In this document: positions 1-24,657 of the stretch, in pieces
Numbering within the stretch: position 1 is the first letter of the stretch
Layout: each line of letters begins with the position of its first letter
IMG/VR virus record: IMGVR_UViG_3300002460_000010
Span: 1-42,488 of that record
Strand: one strand, 5' to 3'
DNA length: 42,488 bases
Source of the DNA: a virus
The notes under the pieces: generated by a model
Seen by the model: the letters and a program-made list of their open reading frames with translations, nothing else
What the model was told of the DNA's origin: nothing
The model's database searches: none
Made by a program: the position numbers and the translations under genes

Positions 1-52
1 ATTAACACCCCTCTGATATGGGTCTAAACCATCTGGTCACGTAAAAGAGGAA
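1..52. repeat. 52-bp terminal direct repeat, copy 1 (identical to 42437..42488); circular-assembly overlap or short DTR
   Basis: attaacacccctctgatatgggtctaaaccatctggtcacgtaaaagaggaa occurs at both extreme ends of the window. Confidence 0.95.
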
Positions 53-81
53 AGTCACTCAAGACTATAAAATGGAAATGT

Positions 82-744
82 ATGGGATTTTTACAAGACG
101 AAGAAGTCAAAGTGGAATCTGAAACCACTGAAAAAACAGAGGAAGCTCCGGTTGAGAGCGAGGTGAAAACACCTGAAGAACAACCAAAAGAGGAAGAGGT
201 TAAGTCTGAGGAAGTGCCAGCGTCCTTCCAAAAAAGGATTGATGAGCTTACTTACAAGTATAAATCTGAGCGTGAAGCAAGAGTTAAACTTGATGAGGAG
301 CTTAAAAAATCCCGGCAAAACCCCGCTCAGCCCACTTCGGAAGAAGAAAAGCGTGAGCAAAGCGCCCGTGAGTATCTTCGGAACCTTTTAAAAGAAGAAC
401 TTGCCGCCACCAAATCTCAAGAAGAAGAGGAAGACAGAAAGTTAAATGAAGAGTTGGATCACGTATCTGCTCTTTATCCCGATTTTAAAAGAGAAGATGT
501 TTTAAAAGTAATGGAGAAGTTCGGCATAGATAATGTTGAAAAGGCTTATCTGGCTTCTAAAGAAATGAATCGAGTAGTTGAAGAAACGAAAGAGAAAACT
601 AAGAAAGAAGTTCTGTCTAAGCCAAAATCTCCGTCATCTGTTAAAACCGTGGATGGACCGGCCACTAAGTTTTCCGATAAGGATATTAGTGAATTGTCCA
701 TGCAGGAACTTGCGGAGCGAGCGAAACAAGAAGCTGGATTTTAG
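82..744 (+). CDS. putative capsid scaffolding protein
   Basis: 220-aa Glu/Lys-rich ORF with coiled-coil-like composition. It lies between portal (across the circular junction) and the capsid gene, the classic scaffold position. No SD upstream of ATG 82. Confidence 0.5.
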   Translation: MGFLQDEEVKVESETTEKTEEAPVESEVKTPEEQPKEEEVKSEEVPASFQKRIDELTYKYKSEREARVKLDEELKKSRQNPAQPTSEEEKREQSAREYLRNLLKEELAATKSQEEEEDRKLNEELDHVSALYPDFKREDVLKVMEKFGIDNVEKAYLASKEMNRVVEETKEKTKKEVLSKPKSPSSVKTVDGPATKFSDKDISELSMQELAERAKQEAGF

Positions 745-762
745 TTAACAGGAGGCAATAAC

Positions 763-1782
763 ATGGCAAGACCAGTATCAGCATTTAGCGATTTTGTCCT
801 GTCTGTTACAAATCAAACCTACGTAAAGAAAGTGGTTGACAACATTCTTAATGGTAACTTTGGATTAATGAGATTTCTCAGTAATTCACAGCCTTGGAAT
901 GGCGGCGATCAGATTCTTATGCCCATCAAAATACAGAAGGGCACATCAAATGGTTCTTATTCCGGTTTAGATACTTTGAGCACAGCTCAGACTTCTGACC
1001 GAATATTAGCGGCTATTGACACCAGACAGTATTACGCTTCAGTCGTAATCTCAGGTATTCAACAGGCCGTGAACTCAGGCGATGGACGTGTGTTGGATTT
1101 GTTAGCAACAGAGATGGAATCAAAAGCGGCAGATTTGAAAGACACAATGGGAGATGGTTTCTATTCAGACGGAACAGGCAATTCCAACAAGGATATTGTC
1201 GGTCTCCGGGCTGCGGTAGACGATTCAACTTTTGTGACGACTTATGAGGGTATTTCTCGTGCAACTTACACCCAGTGGAGGTCAACTATTACCAGCGACG
1301 CTACGGTAACTCTTCCTGACTTTGCTACGGACTTTAACGCAGCTAAGGTTGGAGCGGAAGATCCTACTCTTATGTTAAGTACTCCAGCAATCTTCAACAT
1401 TTATGAAGCATTGATGGACCAGGATGTAAGATATAACCTTTCCTTTACCGGTTATGACCAGATTTATGGAAAAGGACTTCCGAGAAAGAGCGGCAATCTC
1501 GCACAGGGACAGGGCTTTAACTCTCTGTACTTCCGAGGTATTCCGTTCGTAGCTGACGAGAAATGTACAACCGGACGCTTGTACACCTTGAATGAGAATC
1601 ATATTTTCTTCAAGACATTTAGAAAGCATCCTAAACACAACGCAGAGAAGCACGGCTTCTTCTGGACCGGTTTGAAAGAACCCGTTAACCAGGATGGAGA
1701 TGTGGGTCAATTTCTGTGGTATGGAAACTTAGCCTCTGATGGACCGAGATTCTCGGCTCTCAGATACTCTATAACTGGCTAA
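763..1782 (+). CDS. putative major capsid protein (HK97-fold type)
   Basis: 339 aa with AGGAGG 7 nt upstream of the ATG, directly after the scaffold-like ORF. Size and composition fit tailed-phage major capsid proteins. Called by synteny and general resemblance, not a verified alignment. Confidence 0.65.
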   Translation: MARPVSAFSDFVLSVTNQTYVKKVVDNILNGNFGLMRFLSNSQPWNGGDQILMPIKIQKGTSNGSYSGLDTLSTAQTSDRILAAIDTRQYYASVVISGIQQAVNSGDGRVLDLLATEMESKAADLKDTMGDGFYSDGTGNSNKDIVGLRAAVDDSTFVTTYEGISRATYTQWRSTITSDATVTLPDFATDFNAAKVGAEDPTLMLSTPAIFNIYEALMDQDVRYNLSFTGYDQIYGKGLPRKSGNLAQGQGFNSLYFRGIPFVADEKCTTGRLYTLNENHIFFKTFRKHPKHNAEKHGFFWTGLKEPVNQDGDVGQFLWYGNLASDGPRFSALRYSITG

Positions 1783-1811
1783 TTATAGCTAGATAATAAG
1801 GAGGTAAAATT

Positions 1812-2558
1812 ATGCCAAGTATAACAGGACCAAAATTTCTCACGGGTAGTGAGATTAGAGATGCAGGAACTACTCAGGATGTTGTCGGAGTATTAGGCTC
1901 ACGAGCTGAAACTGCTGATGGACGAGTTTTCCGAGCGATGGAAGTAGGCGGGGTGGCCCTTACAAGAGGTAATCTTTTGCAGGGACCGGCTAACGAAGCC
2001 AACCATATCAACCAAGTAGTTGGTGATGCGGCCGCGGTCAACGATATGTTTATTAACGTAGACCTCGGAGCAACGGCTTTAACCGCTAATCAGTACGGCG
2101 ACGGATTCATTGTCATAAATGATGCGGCCGGAGAAGGTATCGCTTACCATGTAGGCGGCCATGCTGCAGCTTCTCTTTCGGCAACTTCAGTAAGAATAAA
2201 TCTTACCGAAGGAGTCCAGGTAGCTCTTACTGCAGATACTTCTGAATATTCTCTTCATTCAATCTGGAGAGACGTAATTCAGAATCCTACGACCTCTACC
2301 AATATGGTAGTCGGTGTTGCTGACTTTGCTTATGCAATTAATGATTACATTTGGGGACAAGTCCTCGGAGTAGTCTCGGTTTTGCAGGAAGCAACTTCGG
2401 CTAATACCGTCATTGATGGTGGAGTCGTAGGTTCGGACACTACGGCCGGAGCTGTTGAGAACACCGCTAACGGAGTTACTACGCACCAAGAAATTGGTAA
2501 AGCGATAGTGGCTAACGTAGATGGTGAGCATAACGGCATTTGGTTGTCAGTCAATTAA
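1812..2558 (+). CDS. hypothetical head-associated protein (possible decoration/auxiliary capsid protein)
   Basis: 248 aa, Gly/Ala/Val/Thr-rich, strong SD (taaggaggtaaaattATG), immediately downstream of the capsid gene. Confidence 0.35.
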   Translation: MPSITGPKFLTGSEIRDAGTTQDVVGVLGSRAETADGRVFRAMEVGGVALTRGNLLQGPANEANHINQVVGDAAAVNDMFINVDLGATALTANQYGDGFIVINDAAGEGIAYHVGGHAAASLSATSVRINLTEGVQVALTADTSEYSLHSIWRDVIQNPTTSTNMVVGVADFAYAINDYIWGQVLGVVSVLQEATSANTVIDGGVVGSDTTAGAVENTANGVTTHQEIGKAIVANVDGEHNGIWLSVN

Positions 2559-2582
2559 CAATTAAATAAAGGAGGAAAGATA

Positions 2583-2927
2583 ATGGCAATTAACGAAGCG
2601 ATAAAGTTTTATAATCCCACCGATGAGAATTATGTAGGCACTTGGGATGGTGAGTCCTACGATATACCTGCCAAATCAACAAAATATTTCGCAATTCATA
2701 TTGCGGAACACTTTGCCAAGCATTTGGTAAACAAGATCTTATTAAATCAATTTGATGAGCTTTGTAAAAAGCACTCAAAATCTGATAAGGATCTTTTAAA
2801 AACTTGTAAGAATTGCAAATTGCGTTCGGACAAGTTAGGAAGTTTCTATGAGGCTCCCGAAAGGAAAGAACTCTTAGAACAAATTTTGCCGAAAGACGTT
2901 CCTCAAGAACCGAAAGCGGCGGAATAG
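2583..2927 (+). CDS. hypothetical protein
   Basis: 114-aa ORF with SD aaaggaggaaagataATG, inside the head module. Confidence 0.6.
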   Translation: MAINEAIKFYNPTDENYVGTWDGESYDIPAKSTKYFAIHIAEHFAKHLVNKILLNQFDELCKKHSKSDKDLLKTCKNCKLRSDKLGSFYEAPERKELLEQILPKDVPQEPKAAE

Positions 2928-2937
2928 TCAGGCTCTT

Positions 2938-3021
2938 AGGGGCCTGAACTGAGATTGGAATAAAGGAATCTAAGATCCTCCTCTTAGTAGTAGTTTTATC
3001 CCAATCTCTACTCAGGCCCCT
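2938..3021 (+). promoter_or_regulatory. long imperfect RNA hairpin (10 bp + 3x3 internal loop + 8 bp, 42-nt apical region); possible RNA processing or 3'-stabilising site
   Basis: aggggcctgaactgagattgg (2938..2958) pairs with ccaatctctactcaggcccct (3001..3021). No U-tract follows, so it is not a canonical terminator. It sits in a 147-nt gap after the head genes. Confidence 0.5.
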
Positions 3022-3074
3022 TGGATAATCAGGTGAGTTGCTCAATATAACGTAGCGACTGGCCTTAAAAACTA

Positions 3075-3455
3075 ATGGCAAAACAATTTGGCGAGAATAT
3101 TGCGAAAAGAGTACGGCAAGGCGTTGTTATTGTTACATCCGGAGAATGGCGTTTGCTGGTCTCCAGTGGTAGCACTAATTATCCTGACCGGACTCATGTT
3201 CGTTTGCAAGCGAAAGGAAAAGTTGGAAATACGGTAGCAGTTGAATATATTAACGGCACGACTATAAATGGCGTTGATTATACTTTTGCTTCTTCTTCAA
3301 CTCTTCCGGGCAGTGTTAAAAATAGTACGCAGTTTCGGGGCACTTCAACGTGGGTCGAACCGGTAGGAGATAAAGTACAAATTTGGGCTCGTATGGACAA
3401 CAAGGCCGCTGCAACGGAAAATTCCGTTAAGGTCGTTGTCACCGAGTTCGCATAA
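3075..3455 (+). CDS. hypothetical beta-rich protein (possible virion protein)
   Basis: 126-aa ORF in the structural operon. Its stop lies 2 nt before the ATG of the Ser/Thr ORF. Confidence 0.5.
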   Translation: MAKQFGENIAKRVRQGVVIVTSGEWRLLVSSGSTNYPDRTHVRLQAKGKVGNTVAVEYINGTTINGVDYTFASSSTLPGSVKNSTQFRGTSTWVEPVGDKVQIWARMDNKAAATENSVKVVVTEFA

Positions 3456-3457
3456 AT

Positions 3458-3667
3458 ATGGCAGAATTTGCATTTGAAAACGAAACAACTCTTACCTGGA
3501 CTTCCACGTCTAGCTCCACTTCAACTTCGTCTACGACCTCAACTACGACTTCAACTAGTTCTACGACTAGCACTTCGTCTACGACTTCAACTACGACCTC
3601 AACGTCTTCCAGTACTTCGACTTCAACCAGTACTTCCAGTTCTTCAACTACAACGATGGCAGCATAG
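3458..3667 (+). CDS. 69-aa protein that is almost entirely Ser/Thr (residues 15-66 contain only S and T)
   Basis: Sequence is MAEFAFENETTLTW + 52 S/T residues + MAA. Codons are varied (tca/tcg/tct/tcc/agt/agc, act/acg/acc/aca), so it is not a simple DNA microsatellite. It shares a 21-residue S/T pattern with the tail of 10760..11908. No SD; stop-start coupled to the upstream ORF. Confidence 0.5.
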   Translation: MAEFAFENETTLTWTSTSSSTSTSSTTSTTTSTSSTTSTSSTTSTTTSTSSSTSTSTSTSSSSTTTMAA

Positions 3668-3668
3668 T

Positions 3669-4157
3669 ATGGATAAAGAATTTTGGAATATAACCTGGAG
3701 TAAGAGATACGAGAGATATAACCGCCATCATCAGGAGATATGGAGCTACCTGCATTCTCTTGATGTCTGGCGGGGCAATATAGTTGATTTAGGATGCGGT
3801 CCGTGTGTGATGTATGAAGGTAAGACTGTTTCACTAATTGGTGTCGATTGGTCGGTTGAGGCTCTGAAGCAAGCCAGAATACACTATCCTTATGGAGTAT
3901 ATATTCAAGGCGATGCTTCAAATACGGGGCTTCCTACTGGCCAATTCGATACCGTAGTGAGCTGTGGATTACTTGATTATTTTAATGACTGGAATCCTGT
4001 TATAATAGAGGCAAAGAGATTATTAAAACCTGGCGGGAAATTCTACGCGACTTTATTGCAAGGTTTTAATAATCACGACTGGTCAAGTTATCCACATATT
4101 GTGGGTAATTGGCACCTTGCCGTGTTTTCTAAGGAGGATGTCAACTTTAGAGAATAG
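3669..4157 (+). CDS. class I SAM-dependent methyltransferase
   Basis: Uses internal ATG 3669 of track ORF 3468..4157; the upstream part of that ORF is the out-of-frame read of the S/T tract. Motif I 'VDLGCGPC', then 'LKPGGKFY'. Confidence 0.7.
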   Translation: MDKEFWNITWSKRYERYNRHHQEIWSYLHSLDVWRGNIVDLGCGPCVMYEGKTVSLIGVDWSVEALKQARIHYPYGVYIQGDASNTGLPTGQFDTVVSCGLLDYFNDWNPVIIEAKRLLKPGGKFYATLLQGFNNHDWSSYPHIVGNWHLAVFSKEDVNFRE

Positions 4158-5007
4158 GATTAGGAATGAGGCCGCTAAATTAGATGGTGTGCCCTTGGCT
4201 TTGTCGGGTGGCGTGGACAGCAGTTTATTAGCGGTTCTTATAAGGCCTAAGTTCGCTATCTCTGTACAATTACCGGGGGATGAAAAATATAATGAGATTC
4301 AATACTCTACTTTAGTGGCGCAACACGTAGGTATAAAACAAGTTATTGTTGAATTGGATGAAAGTAAGTTTGATGAAGATGTAGCAATGGCGGTAAAAGC
4401 TATCGGCAGACCAATCCCCCATTTTAATATTTTCCCGCTTTTTCAGATGTATAAGAAACTGGCCGAGATGGGCGAGACTAAACTGGTTGTAGGAGACGGA
4501 CCCGACGAAATTATGTGCGGGTATGGAAGAGATTTAATCTTTAATTATTTGTATAAAGTTTATGAATTTGAAGCATTTAAAAACTATAAACCCTTGATAG
4601 ATAAATTACTTATTCCTCAAGCGTTAGCAGTTAGAGCTGTGACCAATATGGATGTAGACACGATAATAGAAGCTAATATCTTAATGAGAAAAGATATGGA
4701 CGATATGAGCAACGGTATTGCTAAACATTTCGGCATTACTAACTTCCGCCCTTATCAGGACAATCCTGAGCTTGATAACTTTATGAAAGATTTGCCGGAC
4801 GGGCAAAAAATCAAGGATGTAGAGTTTGGTAAATATGCCCTCAGAGAAATTGCCGCTAAGTACTTACCTCACGAGATTGCTTGGAGAAAGAAGAAGGTTG
4901 GCGGACCGGTCTTTCCTGTAAATATTTTTAAAGGTTGGACGGAAACTGACGGAGAGTTCGGTAAATCTAAGTGGATGGAATATCAAGAAGCTATTTTAAA
5001 TGGATAA
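4138..5007 (+). CDS. asparagine-synthetase-like PP-loop ATP pyrophosphatase (amidotransferase synthetase domain only)
   Basis: 'LALSGGVDSS' is the SGGxDS PP-loop in AsnB-type context. There is no N-terminal glutaminase domain. ATG 4138 preferred over the track's TTG 4099. Confidence 0.65.
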   Translation: MSTLENRIRNEAAKLDGVPLALSGGVDSSLLAVLIRPKFAISVQLPGDEKYNEIQYSTLVAQHVGIKQVIVELDESKFDEDVAMAVKAIGRPIPHFNIFPLFQMYKKLAEMGETKLVVGDGPDEIMCGYGRDLIFNYLYKVYEFEAFKNYKPLIDKLLIPQALAVRAVTNMDVDTIIEANILMRKDMDDMSNGIAKHFGITNFRPYQDNPELDNFMKDLPDGQKIKDVEFGKYALREIAAKYLPHEIAWRKKKVGGPVFPVNIFKGWTETDGEFGKSKWMEYQEAILNG

Positions 5008-5704
5008 AATTAGCATCATAATGACCCATTGGGCCCAGGATTCATTAAGATCCCACACTTTGCGTATTTGTCTTGAGTCTCTGATAAGAACTACGAGACA
5101 TCTGCTGGTGGAGATTATTGTAATTGATAATGGAGGCAGTATAGAAGATTCAAACTATTTATTAAATCTTTGCCATGAAAATAAGATTCAATTCTATCTT
5201 AGAAACTCTGCGAATTTATACTTTGGTTTTGCTCGAAATCTTGGGGTTGATATTTCTATTGGTAATTTTGTGGTATTTTCTGATAATGATATTGAGTATT
5301 ATCCTGGTTGGCTTGATAAATGTGTTCAGGTCTTAAATGCTTATCCTGATAGAAAGATAGCGATTACACCCTTAAGAACAGATAAAGTTCACCGTAAGGA
5401 TAATCATTATTTTGGAGAGCTTACATTGGGCGAGGAGAGGTTTCCCCTGAATATCCGAGCCGGTTCTAATTCGTGGGTTATTAGAAGAAAGGATTTTGAT
5501 GTAATAGGTAAGTTTTTAAATCACCGTGTAGCCGGAACTAAATGGACTGATAAATTTGTTAGGGACGGCTATTTAATGGCTACAATGGATTATTCACCCC
5601 TTGCTGCTGATATGGGTTATTCTTACGGGTATAATTTTACGGAGCAGGTTATTTTAAAGAGACAATTTGCTGACGGTAGTGAGGTAATTATTAATGAAAC
5701 ATGA
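5000..5704 (+). CDS. glycosyltransferase family 2 (GT-A fold)
   Basis: 'EIIVIDNGGS', 'FGFARNLG', 'FSDNDIEY' (DxD). Confidence 0.75.
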   Translation: MDKISIIMTHWAQDSLRSHTLRICLESLIRTTRHLLVEIIVIDNGGSIEDSNYLLNLCHENKIQFYLRNSANLYFGFARNLGVDISIGNFVVFSDNDIEYYPGWLDKCVQVLNAYPDRKIAITPLRTDKVHRKDNHYFGELTLGEERFPLNIRAGSNSWVIRRKDFDVIGKFLNHRVAGTKWTDKFVRDGYLMATMDYSPLAADMGYSYGYNFTEQVILKRQFADGSEVIINET

Positions 5705-6165
5705 AGTTAAGTATAGGTTCTGGTCGTAAAAGTTACCCAGGATACAAAACCATAGATGTAGAATCCTACGCTAATCCTGACTATTTAGGAGATTTTAGAA
5801 CGATGTCTTTCTCAGACTTAGACGAAATAAGAGCCCATCACTTACTGGAACACTTTAGCCGACAGGAAGGAGAGAAAGTAATAAAACTATGGTATTCTTG
5901 GTTAAAAACAGACGGCATGTTGATAGTTGAGACTCCTGATTTTGAAGGAATATGCGATAATTTTAGGAAGGATAAGTACTGGATGACTAGGCATGCTTAT
6001 GGTTCTCAGGAGGCGGAATGGGCCTATCATCGGGATGGTTGGTATCAAGAGAAGTTTGAGTTTATTCTACCAAAACTAGGTTTTAATATTATAGAAATAA
6101 GAAAATCGGTATCTCGCAAGATACTGCCGAATATAACGGTAATTGCTAAAAAATATGAAATATAA
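5701..6165 (+). CDS. class I SAM-dependent methyltransferase (Methyltransf_11/23-like)
   Basis: 'LSIGSG' glycine loop, 'HHLLEHF', '[12 protein letters not shown]'. ATGA-type overlap with the upstream GT. Confidence 0.6.
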
Positions 6166-7087
6166 AAAAGTATTAGTTACGGGTGGAGCGGGTTTTCTCG
6201 GCTCTATTGTGGTGGAAAAACTTATAAAAAGAGGAGTGCTTAAAAAGAATATTCTAATCCCCCGTTCTAAAAATATGGATTTAAGGAAATGGGAGAATTG
6301 TGTTAAGGCGGTTAAGGGTCGGGATTTGGTAATTCATTTAGCCGGTGATGTGGGCGGGATAGGGTATAATAGGGAGAACCCCGGTTCAATGGTTTTTAAT
6401 AATTTGATGATGGGGATTCAATTAATGGAGACGGCTAGGCAGGCAAAAGTTAAGAAATTTGTAACAGTCGGGACTATCTGTGGATATCCTAAGTTTACTC
6501 CCGTTCCTTTCAAAGAAAAAGATTTTTGGAATGGGTATCCCGAAGAGACTAATGCTCCTTATGGTTTAGCTAAGAAAATGTTATTAGTTCAAGGTCAGGC
6601 TTACCGGCAACAATATGGTTTTAATTCTATTTATCTTATTCCCGTTAATCTTTATGGGCCGGGAGATAACTTTGATCCAGCTTCTTCTCATGTTATTCCG
6701 GCTCTTATCAGAAAGGTTGATAAGGCTATTAAGAATAAGGATAAATATATAGAAGTTTGGGGTGACGGCAGCGCTTCCAGGGAATTTTTGTATGTTGATG
6801 ACGCGGCTGAGGGGATTGTTTTAGCTGCCGAGAAATACAATAAATCGGAACCTATAAATTTAGGAGTAGGTTCAGAGATTACTATTAAAAAATTGGTTAC
6901 TCTGATTTGTCATTTAATGTCGTTTAAAGGAAAGATAAAATGGGACAAGTCAAAACCTAACGGTCAGCCCCGCAGAGTGCTGGATATTTCCAGGGCTAAG
7001 AAAGAATTTGGGTTTGAGGCTAAGCAGAATTTGATAATAGGGTTGTATAATACTATTAAGAAATACCATGAAATATACGGGAAATAA
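6155..7087 (+). CDS. fcl: GDP-L-fucose synthase-like NAD(P)-dependent epimerase/reductase
   Basis: '[13 protein letters not shown]' Rossmann loop, 'NAPYGLAKK' (YxxxK), and '[23 protein letters not shown]', which closely matches the conserved Fcl/WcaG/GMER block. ATG 6155 preferred over TTG 6143. Confidence 0.75.
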
Positions 7088-7610
7088 TAGCCCTGATTAC
7101 TGGGACAATAGTTGGAGGAATAATGTGAAGAAATTTCCAAGATATACAATGAACCGGGTTTTTGGGTTAATTCCTGATAATGTTTCGGTGCTGGATATAG
7201 GTTCCGGTGATGGCACTTTTTTAAAAAGATTACAGACTAAGAAAAATTGTCAGGTCTATGGTATTGATATTTCTTTTATCGGCATTGAGAAAGGTAAGAA
7301 TATTGGAGTTCCCGGAGAGGTGAGAAGCGCGGAAGAAATGGATGATTTTGATAAAGAAGCCGATGTGGTTATTTGCAGTCACCTATTGGAACACGTCGGA
7401 GATGACAAGGGGGTGGTAAGAAATATTGCCAGACTGGCTAAGCAATTTGCTGTTATAGCTGTCCCTAATAATTGTTCTTATCCGGAAGAGACGGGAGAAC
7501 ACGTCAGGAAGTATACTAAAGAATCATTGAAAGAACTACTTTCGGGTTTCTTTCGGGTGGTGGAAAATCACACTCTCGGTAATCACTTAATATTCAAATG
7601 TCTAAAATAG
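7068..7610 (+). CDS. class I SAM-dependent methyltransferase
   Basis: '[11 protein letters not shown]' motif I, '[11 protein letters not shown]'. Confidence 0.7.
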
Positions 7611-8278
7611 TTTCACACACTCTTTGTCGGAACGGCCAACCCTTTATAGGAGAGGTTCTTAAAGCTGCTCTACCGATTGTGGATAGAATGATAATAACCA
7701 TTTCTAAGCGGTCAAATGACGGGACAAGGGGGGTTATAGAGGCCCTGAATAGCCCTAAGATTGAGCTATACGAGGAGGAAGTCAGTAATCTTGGCTTGCT
7801 TACCCAAGAACGTCAAAAACAGGTAGATATGACCGATAAAGGTGATATAATCTGGTTTTTAGATGATGATGATTTTTGGCAAGAAGAACACGCCAGGGCT
7901 TGTATTGGAGTGTTGCAAACTAATGATTTTGATGCAGTCAGTGTCAATCCTTATCAGGTGATTGGGAAAAATATGCAAGATGCAAACTGGATCAGTAGGA
8001 AATATTTTACTAAATTCTTTAAGAATGTGGATATTAATTACAGGCATCCCTGGCCCAGAGATATAATATTTAAGGGCGACCAGCATCTTTATTGGAAAGT
8101 TAACAGGAGAAACCCAAGAGTGCCGTTTAAGTTTTTTCACCTTGCTGAAGTAAAGGGGCATTCTTTCAGGAATTATGAACTAAAGGATTTCAAATATCCT
8201 GATGTTAAACCCACTTCTTTAGTGGCAGAATTACCTAAGCCAATATATGAAATTCTCAATAATCGCGCCAATATTTAA
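7598..8278 (+). CDS. putative glycosyltransferase (GT-A-like)
   Basis: 'RMIITISKRSNDGT' and acidic 'IIWFLDDDDFW' (DxD-like). Resemblance is weaker than for its neighbours. Confidence 0.45.
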   Translation: MSKIVSHTLCRNGQPFIGEVLKAALPIVDRMIITISKRSNDGTRGVIEALNSPKIELYEEEVSNLGLLTQERQKQVDMTDKGDIIWFLDDDDFWQEEHARACIGVLQTNDFDAVSVNPYQVIGKNMQDANWISRKYFTKFFKNVDINYRHPWPRDIIFKGDQHLYWKVNRRNPRVPFKFFHLAEVKGHSFRNYELKDFKYPDVKPTSLVAELPKPIYEILNNRANI

Positions 8279-8897
8279 CGAAGAGAAGTATATAAAAAGA
8301 ATGATAGATTCTGTTTTTGAGCAGGGAGTTGACTTTGAATTGATTTTAATGGATGGAGGCTCTACGGATAAGACACATGAAATTATTAATACTTATCATG
8401 ATCCCCGGCTCAAGTTGATAATTATGCCTCATAGATTTTGGAACGAAGAAGATAAAATAAACAGTGTCCAGACCAGGGCTAATATAGGGATATCTTTGGC
8501 CGAAGGGGATATATTCTTTTTGTCTTCGGGTCACGATTGGTTTTTCCCGGGAGCTTTGAAGATAGTAGAAAAAGAAATAGGAGACAGTATTTGGTTAATG
8601 GGCAGATTGGCAAAAGTTGATGAAAATGGTAGAATTGTTAAAAAGATAGCTAATATCCGTTATTCATGCGGTTTTATCAAGCTTGATTTTATCAGAAAAT
8701 ACGGCATAAAACTTGATATTTCCCTGGCTGCCGCGGATTATGACTTGTTTATGCAGGTTCGCAAGTATGCCGGAGAGCCTAAGAGAATTGAGGATTATTT
8801 ATATAAATATATGCTACATCCGTCGGCTTTGAGTAAAAAATTCAACGGAAGAATGAAGAGAGAAAGGAAGAAATTGGATTACCTGTATGGGGTTTGA
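8247..8897 (+). CDS. glycosyltransferase family 2
   Basis: 'FSIIAPIFNEEKYIKRMIDSV', 'ELILMDGGSTDKT'. Paralogous to the N-terminal half of 9422..10744. Confidence 0.7.
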   Translation: MKFSIIAPIFNEEKYIKRMIDSVFEQGVDFELILMDGGSTDKTHEIINTYHDPRLKLIIMPHRFWNEEDKINSVQTRANIGISLAEGDIFFLSSGHDWFFPGALKIVEKEIGDSIWLMGRLAKVDENGRIVKKIANIRYSCGFIKLDFIRKYGIKLDISLAAADYDLFMQVRKYAGEPKRIEDYLYKYMLHPSALSKKFNGRMKRERKKLDYLYGV

Positions 8898-8946
8898 TTT
8901 GATATAATAAATATGGTCGATTAATTAATTAAAGGAGGAAAATATA

Positions 8947-9414
8947 ATGTCAAAGAATTTTGTGGCTTTAAAAATAGCTATAGTAAAACCAAGTTATCTG
9001 AATTTACCGACTCATCCTTCCGGGCATGATGGTTATGAAATAGATCAGCACGGTATTGGTATGCATTATGATAAGGGTTGCTGTGATTTTGACGATAATG
9101 GTTTTCGTTATGCGGTAACAGCTTTGCCGGAGGAAAGAGCGAATGCTTATATAGCTAGAGGCCAGGGTAGAGTTGTTAAAATGACTGAAGCGGAAGCGGA
9201 AGCTTTCTTTGTTGAGCATTGTAAATATGAGCCGGAAGAAGTGTTTGATTTGGACAGATTGCAAGCTATCAAATTAAAGAAGGATTTTGGTTTGCCTTTA
9301 ACGGAAGATGATAATAATGCTATTAATCCTGATAATGCTTTTGTCAGGGGTATTTCTAAGAATTTGAAAAAGGGATTTAGAAATAAACTTCCTAAAGACG
9401 CGATAGTTTTATAA
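8947..9414 (+). CDS. hypothetical protein inside the sugar-enzyme island
   Basis: 155-aa ORF with strong SD (taaaggaggaaaatataATG). No motif recognised. Confidence 0.6.
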   Translation: MSKNFVALKIAIVKPSYLNLPTHPSGHDGYEIDQHGIGMHYDKGCCDFDDNGFRYAVTALPEERANAYIARGQGRVVKMTEAEAEAFFVEHCKYEPEEVFDLDRLQAIKLKKDFGLPLTEDDNNAINPDNAFVRGISKNLKKGFRNKLPKDAIVL

Positions 9415-9421
9415 CTCAATT

Positions 9422-10744
9422 ATGGAGGAAAGTAAATTAAAAATTACTTGTGTAATACCCGTTTTAAACGGAGCTAAGTACATCGCCAAAGCTATTCAAA
9501 GCGTTCAACAGCAGGAAGAACCTTGGGAATTAATGATAGTAGATGGCGGTTCAACTGATAATACGGAAGAAATTGTAAGGGAATTTAATGACCCAAGAAT
9601 AAGGTTTGTCTCAATACCAAACTGTGAAGGTCCGTATGTTCAAGAAGACGAAGGTATCAAATTAGCTACCGGAGACATCTATCACAATATGGGCTGTGAC
9701 GATACGGTCCTTCCTGGTGCTTATAAGACGGTTCGTGAGAACATTGGTGATGCAGAATGGATGTACGGAAATATGGTCGTCTACAATGAGGACTATCAGT
9801 TCAAGCGCGAGAATCATTCCCCTATTTTCAACTATCATCACTATATGGAGGGTAATATGCTCGGAACTCCCTGTTCGTTTATAAGGCTGGACTTTATTAA
9901 AAAGCATAACCTAAAACATACAGGCAGGTGGTTAAACGCTGATTACTATTTTTTACGACTTTGCGCCCAGAAGGCAAAACCGAAACAGATTGGTGATATG
10001 TTGATAGGGATTATGGCTAGAAAAGACTCTATTACTGGTCAAAATTCTAAACAATTTTCTGAATGGAAATTAGAGATGATGGAAGAGCTTAATCAGCTTC
10101 CTTTGCCCGATTATGCTAAAGAAGAGGTGGTTAACCCTAAAGTTCTGATAGCTATAGGCCATCACGGGACGGTTAGAACCGAGATGCTACAGGTTGTGGC
10201 AACTATGATAACTGACGGGAGATGTAGAATAAAGATAATCTATCCTGGTGATAGAATGACTGAAGAGAGGTTCGCCAAGCTAGGAAAAAAGGTGGTTAAA
10301 GAGGGCTGGGACTTTTTATTGAGTATTGATGCTGATAATCCGCCTATTAAAAATCCATTGGATTTAGTCTTCCTAAACAAGGATGTTATGGGCTTGCCGA
10401 CTCCACAATGGTATAATGAAGATAAATACCCAATATTTTGGACAGCTTTAAAGAAAGTACCTAATGGCTGGGATCAGTGGGAAAATAGAAAAGGTTTACA
10501 ACAAGTAGATGCAGTTGGTTCAGGATGTATTATAATTAAGAGAAAGGTGTTCGAGGCCCTTCCAGACGCTCCCTTTGAAAGGAAATGGAATAAGGACGGA
10601 ACACAGGAGTCGGGTGCAGATTTCAACTTCTGTGAAAGAGCAAAATCAAAGGGATTTGAGATTTGGACCCACTTCGACTATCCATGTTCGCACTTTAAGG
10701 AACTGGACTTACTGGAAGTGCTGAAGTTCAAACATAGAGATTAA
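9422..10744 (+). CDS. two-domain glycosyltransferase (GT2 N-half fused to a second GT-A-like C-half)
   Basis: N-half: 'ITCVIPVLNGAKYIAKAIQSV', 'ELMIVDGGSTDNT'. C-half: 'LLSIDADNPP' (DxD), 'GSGCIIIKRKVFE', 'GADFNFCERAKSKGFEIW'. Confidence 0.65.
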   Translation: MEESKLKITCVIPVLNGAKYIAKAIQSVQQQEEPWELMIVDGGSTDNTEEIVREFNDPRIRFVSIPNCEGPYVQEDEGIKLATGDIYHNMGCDDTVLPGAYKTVRENIGDAEWMYGNMVVYNEDYQFKRENHSPIFNYHHYMEGNMLGTPCSFIRLDFIKKHNLKHTGRWLNADYYFLRLCAQKAKPKQIGDMLIGIMARKDSITGQNSKQFSEWKLEMMEELNQLPLPDYAKEEVVNPKVLIAIGHHGTVRTEMLQVVATMITDGRCRIKIIYPGDRMTEERFAKLGKKVVKEGWDFLLSIDADNPPIKNPLDLVFLNKDVMGLPTPQWYNEDKYPIFWTALKKVPNGWDQWENRKGLQQVDAVGSGCIIIKRKVFEALPDAPFERKWNKDGTQESGADFNFCERAKSKGFEIWTHFDYPCSHFKELDLLEVLKFKHRD

Positions 10745-10759
10745 GAGGAGGAATGGCTA

Positions 10760-11908
10760 ATGCCGGCATTTTTATCGGGCAACCTGGTATATTCTGATTT
10801 AACTGGTTCCGCTAAGAGGACATCTGCTTTTACTTCTACGGTTCAGGCTTCTTTTACTGCAACCGGAATAACCGGAGCAACTACGGATGCTGCGGATTTT
10901 TATGGTTGCGTTGATTCAACCGATAAACATACCAGATATTCAGGTTTTACTTCAACGGTAAAAAGTTCATTTACAGCGGCTAATAATAATTTAGGTATTA
11001 CTTGGGATGGAAAATCTCCTGCTAGATATTATACGGGAGACAACACTAATACTAAAATAAAGAAGTTTTCAGGCTTTACTTCAACTGTAGCTTCTAGCGT
11101 AACTAGCTTAGACTCTCCTTGGGATGTTACGTTTGATGAAACTGATTGTTATTATTCTGATTTTACCGGTACTGTTAGATTAGTAAGGTTATCTGCTTTT
11201 ACATCTACGGTTAAAGCTTCCATAGCATCTCCTGGCACTGGTCCTAGAGGTATTTCTATTCAAGAGAGTAATTTGCTTTCATCGAACGCTGCGGCTGACC
11301 CAAATAATAAGGTATATCAACATAGTGCTTTTACTACGACTATAAAAGTTTCTTTTCAAAGAAGTGACGTTCACGGTATGGAGTGGGATGATTATGCTAC
11401 TAGAGCTCAGGATGCAACTACTACTTCTTCGTCTACTAGTACGTCAACCTCCACTAGTACAAGTACATCAACTTCTACTTCAACTTCTACCTCTACGTCT
11501 ACTAGCACTAGTTCTACATCTACCAGCACGAGTACGTCAACTTCTACTTCTACTTCCACTAGTACAAGTACGTCAACATCTTCTTCTACTACTTCAAACA
11601 CTTCTTCTTCTACATCATCATCTACTTCAAGTTCGACGACTTCTAATACCGAATCAACTACTTCTTCGACAACTACTTCTACTTCTACCTCTACTTCTAC
11701 TTCTACCTCTACTTCTACTAGTACCTCTACAAGTACAAGTTCTACTACCTCTACTTCTACTTCTACTTCCTCTACAACTTCTACTTCTTCCACAACTTCT
11801 ACAACAACTTCCACCAGTTCTTCCAGTTCTACTACTACCCAACCGCCCTATATGGTGCCGCAAGTAGACATCCAGGAGTTTAAGCCAATTATAGATACTA
11901 TGGTATAA
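10760..11908 (+). CDS. repeat-domain protein with a ~140-aa poly-Ser/Thr ('mucin-like') tract and short C-terminal tail; candidate glycosylated virion fibre/decoration
   Basis: SD gaggagg lies 8 nt upstream. The N-terminal 215 aa hold 5-6 copies of S(A/G)FTSTV(K/Q)(A/S)SF spaced about 39-44 aa apart. Residues ~220-360 are S/T with only a few N/E. The protein ends QPPYMVPQVDIQEFKPIIDTMV. It lies between the last GT and the tail genes. Confidence 0.6.
   Translation: MPAFLSGNLVYSDLTGSAKRTSAFTSTVQASFTATGITGATTDAADFYGCVDSTDKHTRYSGFTSTVKSSFTAANNNLGITWDGKSPARYYTGDNTNTKIKKFSGFTSTVASSVTSLDSPWDVTFDETDCYYSDFTGTVRLVRLSAFTSTVKASIASPGTGPRGISIQESNLLSSNAAADPNNKVYQHSAFTTTIKVSFQRSDVHGMEWDDYATRAQDATTTSSSTSTSTSTSTSTSTSTSTSTSTSTSTSSTSTSTSTSTSTSTSTSTSTSTSSSTTSNTSSSTSSSTSSSTTSNTESTTSSTTTSTSTSTSTSTSTSTSTSTSTSSTTSTSTSTSSTTSTSSTTSTTTSTSSSSSTTTQPPYMVPQVDIQEFKPIIDTMV
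11417..11839 (+). repeat. coding low-complexity Ser/Thr tract (varied codons) within 10760..11908
   Basis: Read directly from the translation. Other frames give artefactual LRLQ (+) and VEVE (-) ORFs. Confidence 0.9.
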
Positions 11909-11930
11909 TTAGTTAAAAGGAGGTAAATAA

Positions 11931-13328
11931 ATGCTGGTTAGAATTAAGAACGAAACATTAATAGATAAAAGAGAGGGGACGTATTTAACCGCAGCTGTCG
12001 CCGCCGCCGGGACTTCTCTTACGGTCCAGGATAATAACCAATTCTTAGCTGATAATGAATTTTATTTACTGGGTCCGATAGGTTCGGAAACTTCGGAAAT
12101 TATACAGAAAAACGGAGCTGGAACTCTTGGAGTTACGATAGCGGTTGATGCTATTACTTTTGCTCACCCGATTAATACTCCTCTCTACCGGCTTGACTAT
12201 AACCAATTTCGTTTAGCTCATTCTACGACTACTTCCACTAATGATATAGACGCAGCTAATGTAACAACCGCATCTCTTCAGTTTGATGACACCTATACCC
12301 GTTATCAGGATTCTACCTATACTACGGGTTATTTCTTTGTCCGTTTCTATAACTCTCAAACTACTACGTTTTCCGATTATTCTGCTCCTATTCCGGTGGG
12401 AGGACATACTCAGCTTTCCCTGTGGGAAATAGCCAGGAGAGTTTATAAGCATATCGGTTTTTTGAATAATGATGATATGGATGAGAGCCAAGTCAAATTT
12501 GCCGAAGTCAGGAGGGCTATAAATGATAAGCAGAGAGATATAGTTCACGATAGGCTTTGGAATTTTGCCGAGGGCGAACGGAGCTTTGCTACCGTAGCTA
12601 ATCAATTCCGGTATGTTCCTGATTCTACCAGAGTAGGGATTATTAATACGGTTATTTCTGATTCTAAACCGTTAAAATACATTGACAGGCAGACCTGGGA
12701 GTTGACTCATATCGATTCTGATACGACCTCTTCTTATGCGACGCACTTCTCTATCTGGAATAATGAGATTCATTTATATCCTAAGCCGTCAACGGCTGCT
12801 TCTTCTACTACTATGAATGATTCCGGCGGTATCAGCGCGACTGATACTTCGGTTATTCTTACTTCAGCTTCGGGGTTCAGAGCTATCGGCGGGTTTTACA
12901 GGTTTATAATTGATTCTGAGGTTATCTATTCTCCGGCCTTATCCAGCGTCACGTTTTCGGGACTTTTAAGAGGCCGGGAAGGCACAACTGCCGCTGCTCA
13001 TTCTGACGGAGCGACTGTAACTGAGAGAGATATTGTTTATACGTATCAAGTAGAACCGACTGACTTGTCTGATATAACTGATGAAACGATCGTGCCTGAA
13101 CCTGAAGTAATAGCGGTTGGCGTGGCGGCGGACTTCGCCAGAGGCTCTATCGGAGACAATGCTTTAGCTGACCGATTGGATAAGCTCTATAAAGAAGGGT
13201 ATCAGAAACTCATTACAAAATATTCTAAGAAAGTAAAGACGACTTTTAATGCAGTTAAAGATGTTGAGAATACCGTAGATTCAAGAAATCTCTTGAATCC
13301 CAATGATTATCCTCAAAATCTCTCTTAA
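11931..13328 (+). CDS. putative virion structural protein (tail/adaptor region)
   Basis: 465 aa, SD aaaggaggtaaataaATG, first large ORF after the glyco-island. Stop overlaps the next ATG (TAATG). Confidence 0.4.
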   Translation: MLVRIKNETLIDKREGTYLTAAVAAAGTSLTVQDNNQFLADNEFYLLGPIGSETSEIIQKNGAGTLGVTIAVDAITFAHPINTPLYRLDYNQFRLAHSTTTSTNDIDAANVTTASLQFDDTYTRYQDSTYTTGYFFVRFYNSQTTTFSDYSAPIPVGGHTQLSLWEIARRVYKHIGFLNNDDMDESQVKFAEVRRAINDKQRDIVHDRLWNFAEGERSFATVANQFRYVPDSTRVGIINTVISDSKPLKYIDRQTWELTHIDSDTTSSYATHFSIWNNEIHLYPKPSTAASSTTMNDSGGISATDTSVILTSASGFRAIGGFYRFIIDSEVIYSPALSSVTFSGLLRGREGTTAAAHSDGATVTERDIVYTYQVEPTDLSDITDETIVPEPEVIAVGVAADFARGSIGDNALADRLDKLYKEGYQKLITKYSKKVKTTFNAVKDVENTVDSRNLLNPNDYPQNLS

Positions 13329-21319: not shown

Positions 21320-21945
21320 TTCCCTTTAATAATACCATATAATTGTATTGCCTTATGTTGATAAGTATCTGTTTCTTTATGACAACTTTTACACAGGGTT
21401 CTGCCATTAGAAACCTTAAATCTTAATTTAGGGAAATAAGCAAAGGGTAAAATATGGTCAGCTTCTAGTTTTCCACCCCTCTTTTTACACCATACGCAAG
21501 TCCAGTTATCTCTTTTAAAAACCTTTCTGCGCCATATTTTATATTTTAAGCTTTTTCTAATTAAATTATTAATAGAAGTAACTCCTCCCCTCCATGCTCT
21601 ATTATTACTTCCTAAATTCCAATATGCAGATTTTCCTACCCTTGCTTCTTTTAATTTTTTGACATAACTATCAGAAAATTTTTTATTTAACCAATATCTT
21701 ATTTTTGGCCTTAATTTATTTTTATAAAGAAACTTTTGTTTGGCACTAATTTTCTTTTTAGTTTTAGTTGTCTTTAACCTCCCTTTATTACTATCAGATA
21801 AAGCTTTTAATCTACATAAATGAGAGCAGTATTTATTAGGATTATACTTCTGAAGCTTTTTAATTTCAAATATATTATTGCACCTGTGGCAAGTTGTTTT
21901 TGTCATATTTATCTTTCTTATAAACATAGTCCCATAATTCTTCAA
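21316..21945 (-). CDS. HNH endonuclease with Cys-rich N-terminal repeats
   Basis: 'CVWCKKRGGKLEADHILP…NGRTLCKSCHKE', with N-terminal 'CHRCNN…YCSHLC'. The likely true start is ATG 21927 or 21906; the track start is TTG. Confidence 0.75.
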   Translation of the reverse strand: MKNYGTMFIRKINMTKTTCHRCNNIFEIKKLQKYNPNKYCSHLCRLKALSDSNKGRLKTTKTKKKISAKQKFLYKNKLRPKIRYWLNKKFSDSYVKKLKEARVGKSAYWNLGSNNRAWRGGVTSINNLIRKSLKYKIWRRKVFKRDNWTCVWCKKRGGKLEADHILPFAYFPKLRFKVSNGRTLCKSCHKETDTYQHKAIQLYGIIKGK

Positions 21946-23053
21946 TTATAAACTTATTTAAATCTTTTTGATATATTGAATTTTCATAAGCTTCTTTTGC
22001 GGGTCCTGCGGATTCTTTTAAAAGTTGGAGCCAAGTAGGATGATAAATCAACATAGATGAATTAGTTTTACCATGTTTTTCCATATTCCATTTATCCCAA
22101 GGCCGCTGAACGATTAATTCATTAAATGTCATTTTCCTGCGGTTCTCAATAGTAGCTCTTCTTTTTACCATTTCTATTTTTGCCTCTGCCATCATTTGGT
22201 CTAATGTATCTTTCCTTCCTTTCCTTAAATAGTTTATATATGCTCTCTCAATCCAATCATCAGCTCCTAAAGCCCAGCCACAATTAAAGATATTGTGGAT
22301 ATATGAATCGTGATGATAAACATAATTTCTACCTGAAGATAGATGATAACCGATTGCATTAGGGTCAGTAACTACAGTAGAACCATACATCCACCAAAGA
22401 CAATCGACGAATACTTCACCCCCGCCATAAGTCCTGTGAACTTCCGGATAGCCGCCAAAATCTAAGAACTGATCTCTCTGAACCATCACTCCCCAATGGC
22501 CTTGTCCGGCTACAGCAAAGGGAGTATCGGCAACTTTGTAGTTATTCCAAGTCATCTTCCATTCTTCCCCTAATTTAAAAGTATAACCATAACCCATACC
22601 CCCATGATGGGGTGGATAAGCTCCCATCCATTGTACTGAACCATGTACAATTCCTCCTGTGTCTTGACAGGTCTTAATTATAGATTTAAAAAATCCTGGC
22701 TTAAAAGCAATATGAGCATCTGAGAAGTATAAATATTCTCCTCTAGCTATCTGGGCTCCTTTGTTCCGCGCGGAATGATTACCTGCTATTGGGTCGTACA
22801 AAACTCTAACTTGCCTAGACCAAAACATTCCTCGTGGCATAAAGTAAGAGGTAGTTCCTTTCGTTCCTTTTTGAGGCCAGAAATTATTATCAGTAGAACA
22901 ATTATCAACAACTATAATTTCCCAATCTTCAGGAGAGAATCCATCTGCCTCAAGGCAATGAATAGCGGAGTAGATCGTATGAACGATGTTCGGAAATTCG
23001 TTACGGGCGGGAATGATGACGCTTAGTTTTAGTGTGGGTTTAGGTGGTAACAT
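21875..23053 (-). CDS. GT-A fold glycosyltransferase (GT2-like, DxH variant)
   Basis: 'LSVIIPARNE', 'IIVVDNCSTDN', 'YFSDAHI', 'YGGGEVFVDCLWWMYG'. Confidence 0.65.
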   Translation of the reverse strand: MLPPKPTLKLSVIIPARNEFPNIVHTIYSAIHCLEADGFSPEDWEIIVVDNCSTDNNFWPQKGTKGTTSYFMPRGMFWSRQVRVLYDPIAGNHSARNKGAQIARGEYLYFSDAHIAFKPGFFKSIIKTCQDTGGIVHGSVQWMGAYPPHHGGMGYGYTFKLGEEWKMTWNNYKVADTPFAVAGQGHWGVMVQRDQFLDFGGYPEVHRTYGGGEVFVDCLWWMYGSTVVTDPNAIGYHLSSGRNYVYHHDSYIHNIFNCGWALGADDWIERAYINYLRKGRKDTLDQMMAEAKIEMVKRRATIENRRKMTFNELIVQRPWDKWNMEKHGKTNSSMLIYHPTWLQLLKESAGPAKEAYENSIYQKDLNKFIIEELWDYVYKKDKYDKNNLPQVQ

Positions 23054-23324
23054 TTAATTTTAACCATAAGTTGGCTATTGCTGCTTCGGGAGTTGAGCCG
23101 AAGGTAAAACATAATTCCAGATCACCTTCGGCCATCCATTTATCAAGTGCATCTTGCCTGTAATTGAGAGCCTTAAATCTATTTCCACACGCTTCTATAA
23201 GTTCAGAGAGAGTCGGGAATCTCTCGTTAAAGGTAACCTTAGTTCCGTCGGGTAATTCCATAACGCCAAAAGAAATTGGTTTAAACCCCGCGTCTTTTAA
23301 TTGTTTTGCTAATTCGTAGTTCAT
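23040..23324 (-). CDS. hypothetical protein
   Basis: ATG 23324 forms an ATGA overlap with the stop of 23321..24340 (MNYELAKQLKDAGF…). The track start 23345 is less likely. Confidence 0.55.
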   Translation of the reverse strand: MNYELAKQLKDAGFKPISFGVMELPDGTKVTFNERFPTLSELIEACGNRFKALNYRQDALDKWMAEGDLELCFTFGSTPEAAIANLWLKLNVTT

Positions 23325-24340: not shown

Positions 24341-24460
24341 ATTTTAATAAGTAATTAGTTAATTTATTACAAAGAAATAATAAAAACTCAACAAAAAAAC
24401 TACCTCGTTTATAAACCTGCCTACCTTCTGCTCCTTTTAACCACATTTGAAATTCTTTTA

Positions 24461-24655
24461 TCATGATAATTGATGACCGCACATTGGGCATAGCTTCTTT
24501 TCTTCCGGGTTGCATTTATGGCATAGTCGATCAGCAAAGAAGATGCCCGTGCACTCATGGGTTAATTGTTTCCAGGGTATATTCTTATGACAGATCGTGC
24601 AGTGCTTAGGCTTTGGGAGTATTTTATTTTTTGTTTTGGTTAAGAAGTTTAGCAT
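24461..24655 (-). CDS. small Cys/His-rich (zinc-finger-like) protein
   Basis: Internal ATG 24655 lies 2 nt after the upstream stop. Motifs 'HCTICHKN…HEC…CHKCNPEEKKLCPMCGH'. Confidence 0.45.
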   Translation of the reverse strand: MLNFLTKTKNKILPKPKHCTICHKNIPWKQLTHECTGIFFADRLCHKCNPEEKKLCPMCGHQLS

Positions 24656-24657
24656 TG

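Follow-up and report, generated by a model that had tools for sequence, protein, structure and literature searches.

We analysed the whole of a 42,488-nucleotide stretch of viral DNA (IMG/VR record IMGVR_UViG_3300002460_000010, referred to here as the window), which represents a podophage-like genome about 42 kb in length. Comparison with related genomes shows that, as judged from sequence, the open reading frame (ORF) at 3458..3667 on the plus strand, encoding 69 residues that are mostly serine and threonine, is a true gene, small but conserved, whose translation is coupled to that of the structural-module gene before it. The same comparison shows selection, insofar as aligned sequences report it, on the Ser/Thr-only composition of the encoded tract, on its two boundaries and on its N-terminal module, and not on the bulk order of S and T. 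We favour, with a probability of roughly 0.6, a reading in which this mini-gene is real and conserved, its tract and that of a large protein encoded at 10760..11908 are O-glycosylated stalks of virion appendages, and a 22-residue S/T string shared by the two proteins is coincidental. An earlier note on this DNA (the original prediction) had started from that string and proposed that its order was held by selection in two paralogous acceptor modules.

A small Ser/Thr gene is conserved in related phages

The mini-gene runs from an ATG to a TAG and encodes an N-terminal module of 14 residues (MAEFAFENETTLTW; 3458..3499, on the plus strand like the other features below unless stated otherwise), which is the non-repetitive conserved part and ends in a family-wide [L/F]TW motif. 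A pure Ser/Thr tract of 52 residues follows (3500..3655), a putative O-glycosylation acceptor stalk that closes in the terminator S-S-T-T-T (3641..3655), and the residues MAA precede the stop codon. Upstream lies a structural-module gene (3075..3455) for a beta-rich protein of 126 residues, whose stop codon falls 2 nt before the mini-gene ATG.

Relatives were retrieved by a search with the capsid protein, after which their contigs were fetched, and later by a DNA scan with a degenerate pattern for the N-terminal module. Together these gave 11 distinct versions of the mini-gene across related groundwater and soil podophage contigs with 94% to 48% capsid identity, and the gene is present in every relative contig that covers the site. 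The pattern scan returned five metagenome-contig matches, four of them true family members, and contributed three further members on short contigs (L021–L023). In IMG/VR the same pattern had 0 matches, a locus search with the 126-residue protein found none, and a capsid-protein search found one contig, which ends short of the mini-gene site. We read gene context in eight lineages (L003, L004, L005/6, L008, L011/12, L013, L014/15 and L016), with the short contigs L021–L023 left out. In all eight the mini-gene lies 3' of a homologue of 3075..3455, and a glycosylation cassette is next or close by where the contig extends. The mini-gene ATG abuts or overlaps the upstream stop codon in 9/9 lineages examined.

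The N-terminal module spans 12–22 residues across the 11 versions and always closes in [L/F]TW. Its codons differ by five synonymous and no nonsynonymous changes between L003 and L008, by three and none between L004 and L005, and by four synonymous and two nonsynonymous changes between the window and L004. The existence of 11 conserved versions, together with the pairs in which the N-terminal module changes only synonymously, indicates that the mini-ORF is neither slippage-generated junk nor a decaying remnant, and agrees with the earlier claim that both tracts lie in real, selected coding sequences. Arrays called by Tandem Repeats Finder (TRF) in 3518..3645 have just 62–76% matches, and frame, start, N-terminal module and terminator are kept in all 11 versions. 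The proposal that the mini-ORF is free-standing also holds, since it is a stand-alone gene; its description as a remnant module does not, and we found nothing in favour of a decoy peptide.

We considered whether the S/T frame might be a programmed-frameshift tail of the 126-residue protein. This was excluded because the frame offset to the upstream gene varies by lineage (+2 in the window, +1 in L005), and also by an in-frame stop before the ATG and the absence of a slippery heptamer. In L008, a perfect 9-bp GC-rich hairpin (GGGGGCTGG-GTAA-CCAGCCCCC, 12903–12935) follows the mini-gene stop, ~130 nt before the cassette; a terminator scan after the mini-gene did not call this hairpin, which has no T run, and called none in the window. 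The hairpin and the gap suggest that the mini-gene may close the head-gene transcription unit in L008.

Selection acts on composition and boundaries, and on S/T order only at particular sites

Mini-gene tracts are 42–70 residues long, and the 562 residues of the 11 orthologous tracts include no residue other than S or T. All 17 tract ends, in mini-proteins and large proteins together, close in S-S-T-T-T with varied codons, and the mini-proteins then finish with two or three residues (MP, MA, MAA, SA, AGA or AVG). By contrast, the order of S and T and the length of the tract differ between relatives, even in pairs whose N-terminal modules differ only synonymously, indicating that selection spares the bulk order. 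Similarity in tract order exceeds a Markov null only in the nearest pairs (z about 2.4–2.9); it is weaker between the window and L005 (z about 2.0–2.3), and the window and L003 are at the null. The original prediction had itself named free S/T shuffling in relatives as the result that would count against a selected order, and this is what we observed: order and length vary behind identical N-terminal modules.

S/T order is nevertheless kept at some sites. A 14-residue island, SSSTTSNTESTTSS, has eight exact copies, one in the window (11627–11668, inside the large-protein tract, with a variant at about 11579–11620) and seven in L008 (17733, 17829, 19266, 19341, 19434, 19527 and 19641), with 1–8 of 14 codons identical. 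The L008 copies are spaced 25–38 residues apart within large-protein Ser/Thr tracts. Exact residues over scrambled codons, both here and in SSTTT, indicate that S/T identity can be strongly selected at particular sites. SSTTT and SSSTTSNTESTTSS are possibly recognition or priming sites, and SSSTTSNTESTTSS may alternatively serve in processing. The shared 22-residue string is not a selected site of this type.

A fibre-type domain adjoins the mini-protein in one lineage

The best clue to the nature of the mini-protein comes from L005/L006, where the tract (...SSSSTTTM) runs on as SDKRLKKNIRDF (SDKRLKKNI...). When one T is removed from a TTTT run, this extension is joined to an overlapping ORF and becomes a complete Peptidase_S74 domain (PF13884, E=5.5e-18, profile positions 1–57 of 58) that starts exactly at the Ser after TTTM. 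Window-type mini-proteins stop at the equivalent point (TTTMAA, TTTMP or TTTMA); the window mini-ORF itself, which stops three residues after TTT, has no Pfam match and no S74 domain. Peptidase_S74 domains are self-cleaving intramolecular chaperones that end trimeric phage fibres and spikes, such as endosialidase and the T5 L-shaped tail fibre. By analogy, self-cleavage in L005/L006 would leave ...TTTM, the window-type end. This fusion suggests that the mini-protein is probably a fibre-like virion appendage. The one-base frame break that splits the S74 domain off from the mini-protein lies at L005 12973–12985 (L006 alike), within the TTTT run (about 12978–12981), and two replicate assemblies agree on it; explanations for it include a true frameshift, a pseudogene and a systematic error.

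A large protein places a second Ser/Thr tract between a propeller and a conserved peptide

The large Ser/Thr protein (10760..11908, 382 residues, with AGGAGG, a strong Shine-Dalgarno sequence, upstream) begins with a beta-propeller domain of 216 residues (10760..11407) that carries six FT[ST]T[VI]-type motifs with the consensus [HY]SGFTSTVxxSF. The AlphaFold2 (AF2) model of this domain has a predicted local distance difference test score (pLDDT) of 89 and a predicted TM-score (pTM) of 0.87, and its Foldseek matches include YVTN, YWTD and WD40 propellers, with E values of about 1e-7 to 1e-8. A Ser/Thr tract of 141 residues follows (11417..11839), in which N280, N296 and E298 are the only other residues; it too closes in S-S-T-T-T (11825..11839). 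The protein ends in a conserved C-terminal peptide, QPPYMVPQVDIQEFKPIIDTMV (11840..11905), a putative anchor with similar motifs in relatives: P.VD....[KR]PI[ILV] ends the large Ser/Thr proteins of L003, L006, L008, L014 and L016.

In relatives the N-terminal domain is swapped, for example for a glycine-rich one in L003, while the Ser/Thr tract, the SSTTT end and the C-terminal motif stay. A variable head with a constant tract and terminal peptide indicates that the tract is a stalk between the two, and makes the peptide a candidate virion anchor. Propeller-domain homologues of 232–253 residues also occur without a Ser/Thr tract, passing almost directly into a short C-terminal peptide; the phage contigs L017 and L019, which carry such homologues, have neither a Ser/Thr tract nor a mini-gene.

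Other features of this gene were observed. In the window, a long glycosyltransferase family 2 (GT2) gene (9422–10744) precedes the propeller-coding part (10760–11407), and this pair is kept in the unrelated SU10-like L017 (8732–10720); the repeated FTSTV motifs of the propeller might be the target of the adjacent long GT2. The tract of the large protein in L002 is shorter by three Ser-Thr pairs (18 nt), which is either a real change in length against an otherwise identical background or an error of assembly.

A glycosylation cassette lies between the two Ser/Thr genes

Pfam and NCBIfam searches identified a glycosylation cassette at 3669..10744. Its first half encodes, in order, a methyltransferase, an AsnB-like amidotransferase, a GT2, a protein without assignment and an Fcl-like short-chain dehydrogenase/reductase (SDR) of the epimerase/reductase type; the second half encodes a methyltransferase, two GT2 enzymes, another protein without assignment and a GT2 of 440 residues, in which the matched domain covers just about the first 136. 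The Fcl-like enzyme matches the NCBIfam GDP-L-fucose synthase model at E=4.7e-78, below the curated cutoff, and the AsnB-like enzyme matches asparagine synthase at E=6e-23. We found no transmembrane-like segments in the cassette proteins, all of which are soluble, and no flippase, lipid-carrier transferase or oligosaccharyltransferase among the cassette and window ORFs scanned; this combination fits direct cytoplasmic transfer.

Cassette genes are exchanged in relatives, where a DegT aminotransferase, a Methyltransf_21 protein, a UDP-glucose dehydrogenase and a full-length AsnB appear. The relatives nonetheless keep the mini-gene 5' of the cassette, and one or more large Ser/Thr proteins 3' of it where the fetched sequence reaches. 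A second glycosylation set lies on the minus strand of the window at 21875..28920 and comprises a GT2, a methyltransferase, a UDP-glucose dehydrogenase-like protein and a weakly matched GT1; a Cpn60 gene sits among them. Sugar chemistry and chaperonins together take up roughly a quarter of the genome.

A proposed role of the Ser/Thr tracts as glycosylated stalks, and the alternatives

From the gene context it is plausible that both tracts are acceptor modules. We propose that the soluble glycosyltransferases and the sugar-modifying enzymes encoded just downstream would use the mini-gene tract as an O-glycosylation acceptor, and that the 141-residue stalk of the large protein that closes the cassette would be an acceptor likewise. 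Glycosylation would take place in the cytoplasm, before or during assembly, so that extended sugar-coated filaments would be displayed on the virion. In the mini-protein, the stalk would then be bare and attached through the N-terminal module; in the large protein, it would carry a propeller head for distal binding and would probably be anchored by the C-terminal peptide. A further function in adhesion, shielding or colloidal stability is speculation.

Several observations weigh against this proposal. All glycosyltransferases found are generic GT2 or GT1 enzymes, and NCBIfam and PDB sequence searches assigned none to protein O-glycosylation; one GT2 similarity, weak and generic, was to GalT1 (5hea, E=2e-6), and it gives no sign of membership in the serine-rich repeat glycoprotein systems discussed below. 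The AF2 model of the upstream 126-residue protein (pLDDT 59, 8 strands) had no Foldseek match in the PDB at E<=0.001, so it gives no head or tail placement, and its matches above E 0.001 were only generic jelly-roll or GOLD-like folds. There is no Shine-Dalgarno sequence before 3458, whereas the major genes carry AGGAGG, although several cassette genes are likewise without one. The S74 link comes from one lineage and follows a 1-nt frame correction. Lastly, naive models make the shared 22-residue string rare (P about 0.0005–0.016, see below), leaving room for an old duplication of a 16-residue unit.

A bolder form of the glycosylated-stalk proposal, which we hold only tentatively and consider possible rather than probable, is that the mini-proteins form an unannotated family of "mini-mucins": free-standing poly-Ser/Thr proteins of groundwater podophages, heavily O-glycosylated by phage enzymes and arranged as capsid or neck filaments, folded or trimerised by a cleavable S74 chaperone in some lineages, with SSTTT and SSSTTSNTESTTSS as recognition or priming sites for the glycosyltransferases. 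If true, one virion component would be almost wholly sugar on a two-letter peptide backbone. Should the glycosylated-stalk proposal itself hold, dedicated acceptor proteins, one of them hardly more than a run of Ser and Thr, would come on top of the ~1/4 of a 42-kb genome spent on sugar chemistry and chaperonins. The literature searched contained no account of poly-Ser/Thr phage proteins.

The strongest alternative, though in our judgement an unlikely one, is that the tracts carry no sugars and act as flexible linkers or entropic bristles, with the cassette directed at another target such as phage DNA or host envelope polysaccharide. Phage glycosyltransferases are described in PMC12619734 as also modifying DNA and host surface polysaccharides, and none of the enzymes in the window could be linked to a protein substrate. 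However, every lineage has Ser/Thr genes on the flanks of the cassette even though the cassette genes turn over, and a linker role sits poorly with propeller homologues that have no tract and with L017 and L019, where both tract and mini-gene are missing. We also found no base-hydroxymethylase or thymidylate-synthase-like gene among the ORFs scanned, and no lipid-carrier or flippase gene or membrane enzyme.

It is less probable still that the mini-protein is the precursor of a ribosomally synthesized and post-translationally modified peptide (RiPP), of glycocin-like or lasso-like type, with a leader and a Ser/Thr core modified by the adjacent enzymes, released as a free glycopeptide (a signal, a glycosyltransferase decoy or a host-surface mimic) and absent from the virion. 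The conserved N-terminal module is short, the core is hypervariable and tailoring enzymes are encoded next to it, much as for such a precursor, and the asparagine-synthase homologue matches lasso/macrolactam cyclase models weakly (E=4.7e-6 and 4.8e-4; lasso cyclase 4.8e-4), as GT2 enzymes do the model of the SunS peptide S-glycosyltransferase (E about 1e-4). The asparagine synthase match is far better, however (E=6e-23, as above), and relatives pair this homologue with UDP-glucose dehydrogenase in the style of a uronamide pathway. Pfam and NCBIfam searches of the cassette and most window ORFs found no leader protease, RiPP recognition element (RRE)/PqqD, YcaO or transporter family, and the core has no Cys. 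A free peptide would also be at odds with a gene inside the structural module, with a tract type shared with a clearly structural protein, and with a fibre-type S74 chaperone in one lineage.

The shared 22-residue string is most likely coincidental

The original prediction reported a 21-residue S/T pattern common to the two proteins, and we found this string (STSSTTSTSSTTSTTTSTSSS) at residues 32–52 of the mini-ORF (nt 3551–3613) and residues 335–355 of the large protein (nt 11762–11824). The exact match is in fact one residue longer, a string of 22 (TSTSSTTSTSSTTSTTTSTSSS) with copy A at 3548..3613 and copy B at 11759..11824. As had been reported, five of 21 codons are identical (six of 22 for the full string) and several serines change codon family; the TCN/AGY switches number four. 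The two copies agree at 43 of 66 nucleotides and at seven of 22 third positions. Codon identity (27%) and third-position identity (32%) are those expected from the codon usage of the two tracts (~28% and ~35%), indicating that no DNA trace of common descent is left.

Both copies bear marks of recent duplication. The mini-gene tract contains an internal duplication (3518..3610) of a 15-residue unit, TSTSSTTSTTTSTSS, at nt 3518–3562 and 3566–3610 (TRF period 48, 76% matches), in which nine of 15 codons and 10 of 15 third positions are identical. Copy A straddles the junction of this 48-nt duplication (a unit of 15–16 residues). In the large protein, nt 11759–11802 of copy B lie inside an 18-nt tandem array (TRF, 2.4 copies, 92% matches), from which the first six residues of copy B derive. 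With copy A spanning a duplication junction and copy B starting with a tandem copy, the string must be young in both genes.

We estimated how often a shared string of at least 22 residues would arise by chance. The probability was 0.0005 under an independent and identically distributed model, 0.002–0.016 under Markov models of orders 1–3 and 0.006–0.065 under orders 4–6; after both duplications were collapsed, the remaining shared 16-mer had P = 0.02–0.18. As an empirical null, we compared nine mini-gene tracts with six large-protein tracts from related contigs, which gave 48 non-cognate pairs. Matches of at least 22 residues occurred in five of these 48 (maximum 27) and of at least 20 in eight, and the five longest non-cognate matches examined were also at chance-level codon identity. 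Cognate pairs scored 22, 19, 18, 16, 12 and 11, which is no clear excess over the mean of 14.4 for non-cognate pairs. Apart from L002, the relatives searched contained neither the 22-mer nor its 15-residue core unit; L002 is DNA-identical to the window over about 1900..11400 and hence of no use as a partner for dN/dS. An origin of the string by a diversity-generating retroelement (DGR)-type mechanism or by gene conversion was rejected, as long matches are no commoner in cognate pairs and the copies show no similarity as DNA.

These results bear on the model put forward in the original prediction, of a single duplicated acceptor module with purifying selection on S/T order and saturated synonymous sites. 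Such a model would account for an exact 22-mer with chance-level codon identity and four TCN/AGY switches, it draws on the small P values of the low-order models, and strict S/T order over scrambled codons does exist in SSSTTSNTESTTSS and SSTTT. We nonetheless regard it as very improbable: the string and its core are absent from all relatives but the DNA-identical L002, S/T order and tract length vary among orthologues whose N-terminal modules are identical, the duplication junction in copy A and the 92%-identical tandem copy in copy B mean that the string is not ancient, 5/48 non-cognate pairs match over at least 22 residues, and cognate pairs overall score no higher than non-cognate ones. 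Thus, the claim that the S/T order of the string is conserved by selection was not supported. The idea of paralogous modules stands in part, in that the two tracts are of the same kind (near-pure Ser/Thr with an S-S-T-T-T end); it falls in that the 21/22-mer is not an order held since duplication. Most likely, the 22-residue identity is a coincidence of a restricted two-letter grammar, lengthened by independent recent duplications, and not a selected block. It is a cautionary case, in that striking long exact two-letter matches recur between unrelated tracts.

Gene callers miss the mini-gene

Gene callers skip the mini-gene in most contigs examined and call it solely in L003. Two errors account for this. 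In the first, the methyltransferase gene is extended through an alternative Leu/Arg/Pro-rich frame (window 3468–4157, L002 3080–3769, L004 8781–9425); in the second, antisense Val/Glu/Asp-rich ORFs are called (L008, L011, L013, L014 and L016). Fusion of frames and antisense calls thus give the methyltransferase a wrong start and leave a conserved gene unrecorded. The methyltransferase in fact starts at ATG 3669, and the TTG 3468 extension is an artefact of the alternative frame. We give next to no credence to the idea that the S/T frame is untranslated and that the locus is instead a methyltransferase extension (TTG 3468..4157, Leu/Arg/Pro/Gln-rich), an antisense ORF (3439..3921) or non-coding repeat DNA, which the callers' choice of the extension (L002, L004) or the antisense ORF (the five contigs just named) and the missing Shine-Dalgarno sequence before 3458 might suggest, because methyltransferase orthologues of 151–161 residues lack the extension and Pfam covers that of the window from ATG 3669, the S/T frame, ATG and N-terminal module persist where the next gene is a GT2 (L003, L008) or S74 (L005), codon changes in the N-terminal module are synonymous when read in the S/T frame, and the tract, with its scrambled codons, is no simple DNA repeat.

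Genome setting

The major head protein (763..1782, 339 residues) matches phrog_9953 at E=5e-52, aligned over residues 12–332. Upstream of the capsid gene, relatives encode a terminase, Cpn10 and a P22/SU10-type portal, with Cpn10 between terminase and portal. A megablast search of 1..12000 against GenBank phages gave no match, and a tblastn search with the capsid protein reached no more than 31% identity (Manatee Spring contigs, a TM7/Saccharibacteria phage and Mx8/Mx9). The clade is found mainly in metagenomes of the small size fraction of groundwater: ERZ1292632/642/644/660 (Hainich H14 and H43, 0.1–0.2 um) and ANAN16, with relatives from Manatee Spring. At the capsid gene (about 900–1900), L002 is just 78–87% identical to the window, and the change from there to identity over about 1900..11400 suggests a recombination boundary. 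Clusters of 10-bp direct repeats, AACGGACGTT and variants (36885–36926, 37079–37104 and 37139–37156), are found between the leftward and rightward gene blocks of the window; they may be iterons or operator sites.

Comparison with known systems

We compared the locus with four known systems, none of which fits as its family. Serine-rich repeat glycoproteins of Gram-positive bacteria (Fap1, GspB, SraP) are encoded in glycosylation islands with cytoplasmic glycosyltransferases. The likeness lies in a long Ser-rich low-complexity region encoded beside several cytoplasmic glycosyltransferases, and in a stalk that bears a binding domain. However, the tracts here are pure S/T, in contrast to SASx dipeptides, and they belong to a virion module of a phage. 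When the cassette and most ORFs were searched with Pfam and NCBIfam, the matches were confined to GT2, one weak GT1, methyltransferases and sugar-nucleotide enzymes, with no GtfA/GtfB-type or Sec match, and the two Ser/Thr proteins contain no LPXTG.

The S74-bearing phage fibres are approached by the mini-protein of L005/L006, which closes in a full S74 domain right after ...TTTM. They differ in the part before the chaperone, which here is a disordered-looking Ser/Thr tract and not a beta-helix or coiled coil. A binding head, an O-glycosylated Ser/Thr stalk and a C-terminal anchor are combined in mucins and fungal adhesins (Als, Flo), an architecture that the large protein resembles with its propeller head, 141-residue stalk and short C-terminal peptide. 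This is an analogy only, without homology; glycosylation would be cytoplasmic here, and the context is viral.

In mycobacteriophages, virion glycans are carried on the C-termini of capsid and tail-tube subunits, according to PMC12619734; the work of Freeman et al. 2023 on mycobacteriophage virion glycosylation is cited in that paper and in PMC13313380. In these accounts, phage glycosyltransferases and methyltransferases lie beside structural genes, with virion proteins as their proposed or shown targets. The location is alike in the window, where five GT2 genes and genes for sugar-modifying enzymes lie between the head module and downstream virion genes. The acceptor is not: the capsid protein (763..1782) has no Ser/Thr tail, no tail-tube gene was identified in the window, and the window holds just two Ser/Thr tracts (3482..3664 and 11408..11848). 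Set against those C-terminal acceptors, the acceptor candidates here are dedicated proteins, a 69-residue poly-Ser/Thr protein and a propeller with a stalk. If the tracts are indeed glycosylated, phage virion glycosylation would reach beyond actinobacteriophages, and would do so with a new substrate design, in which dedicated stalk proteins take the place of capsid and tail-tube tails.

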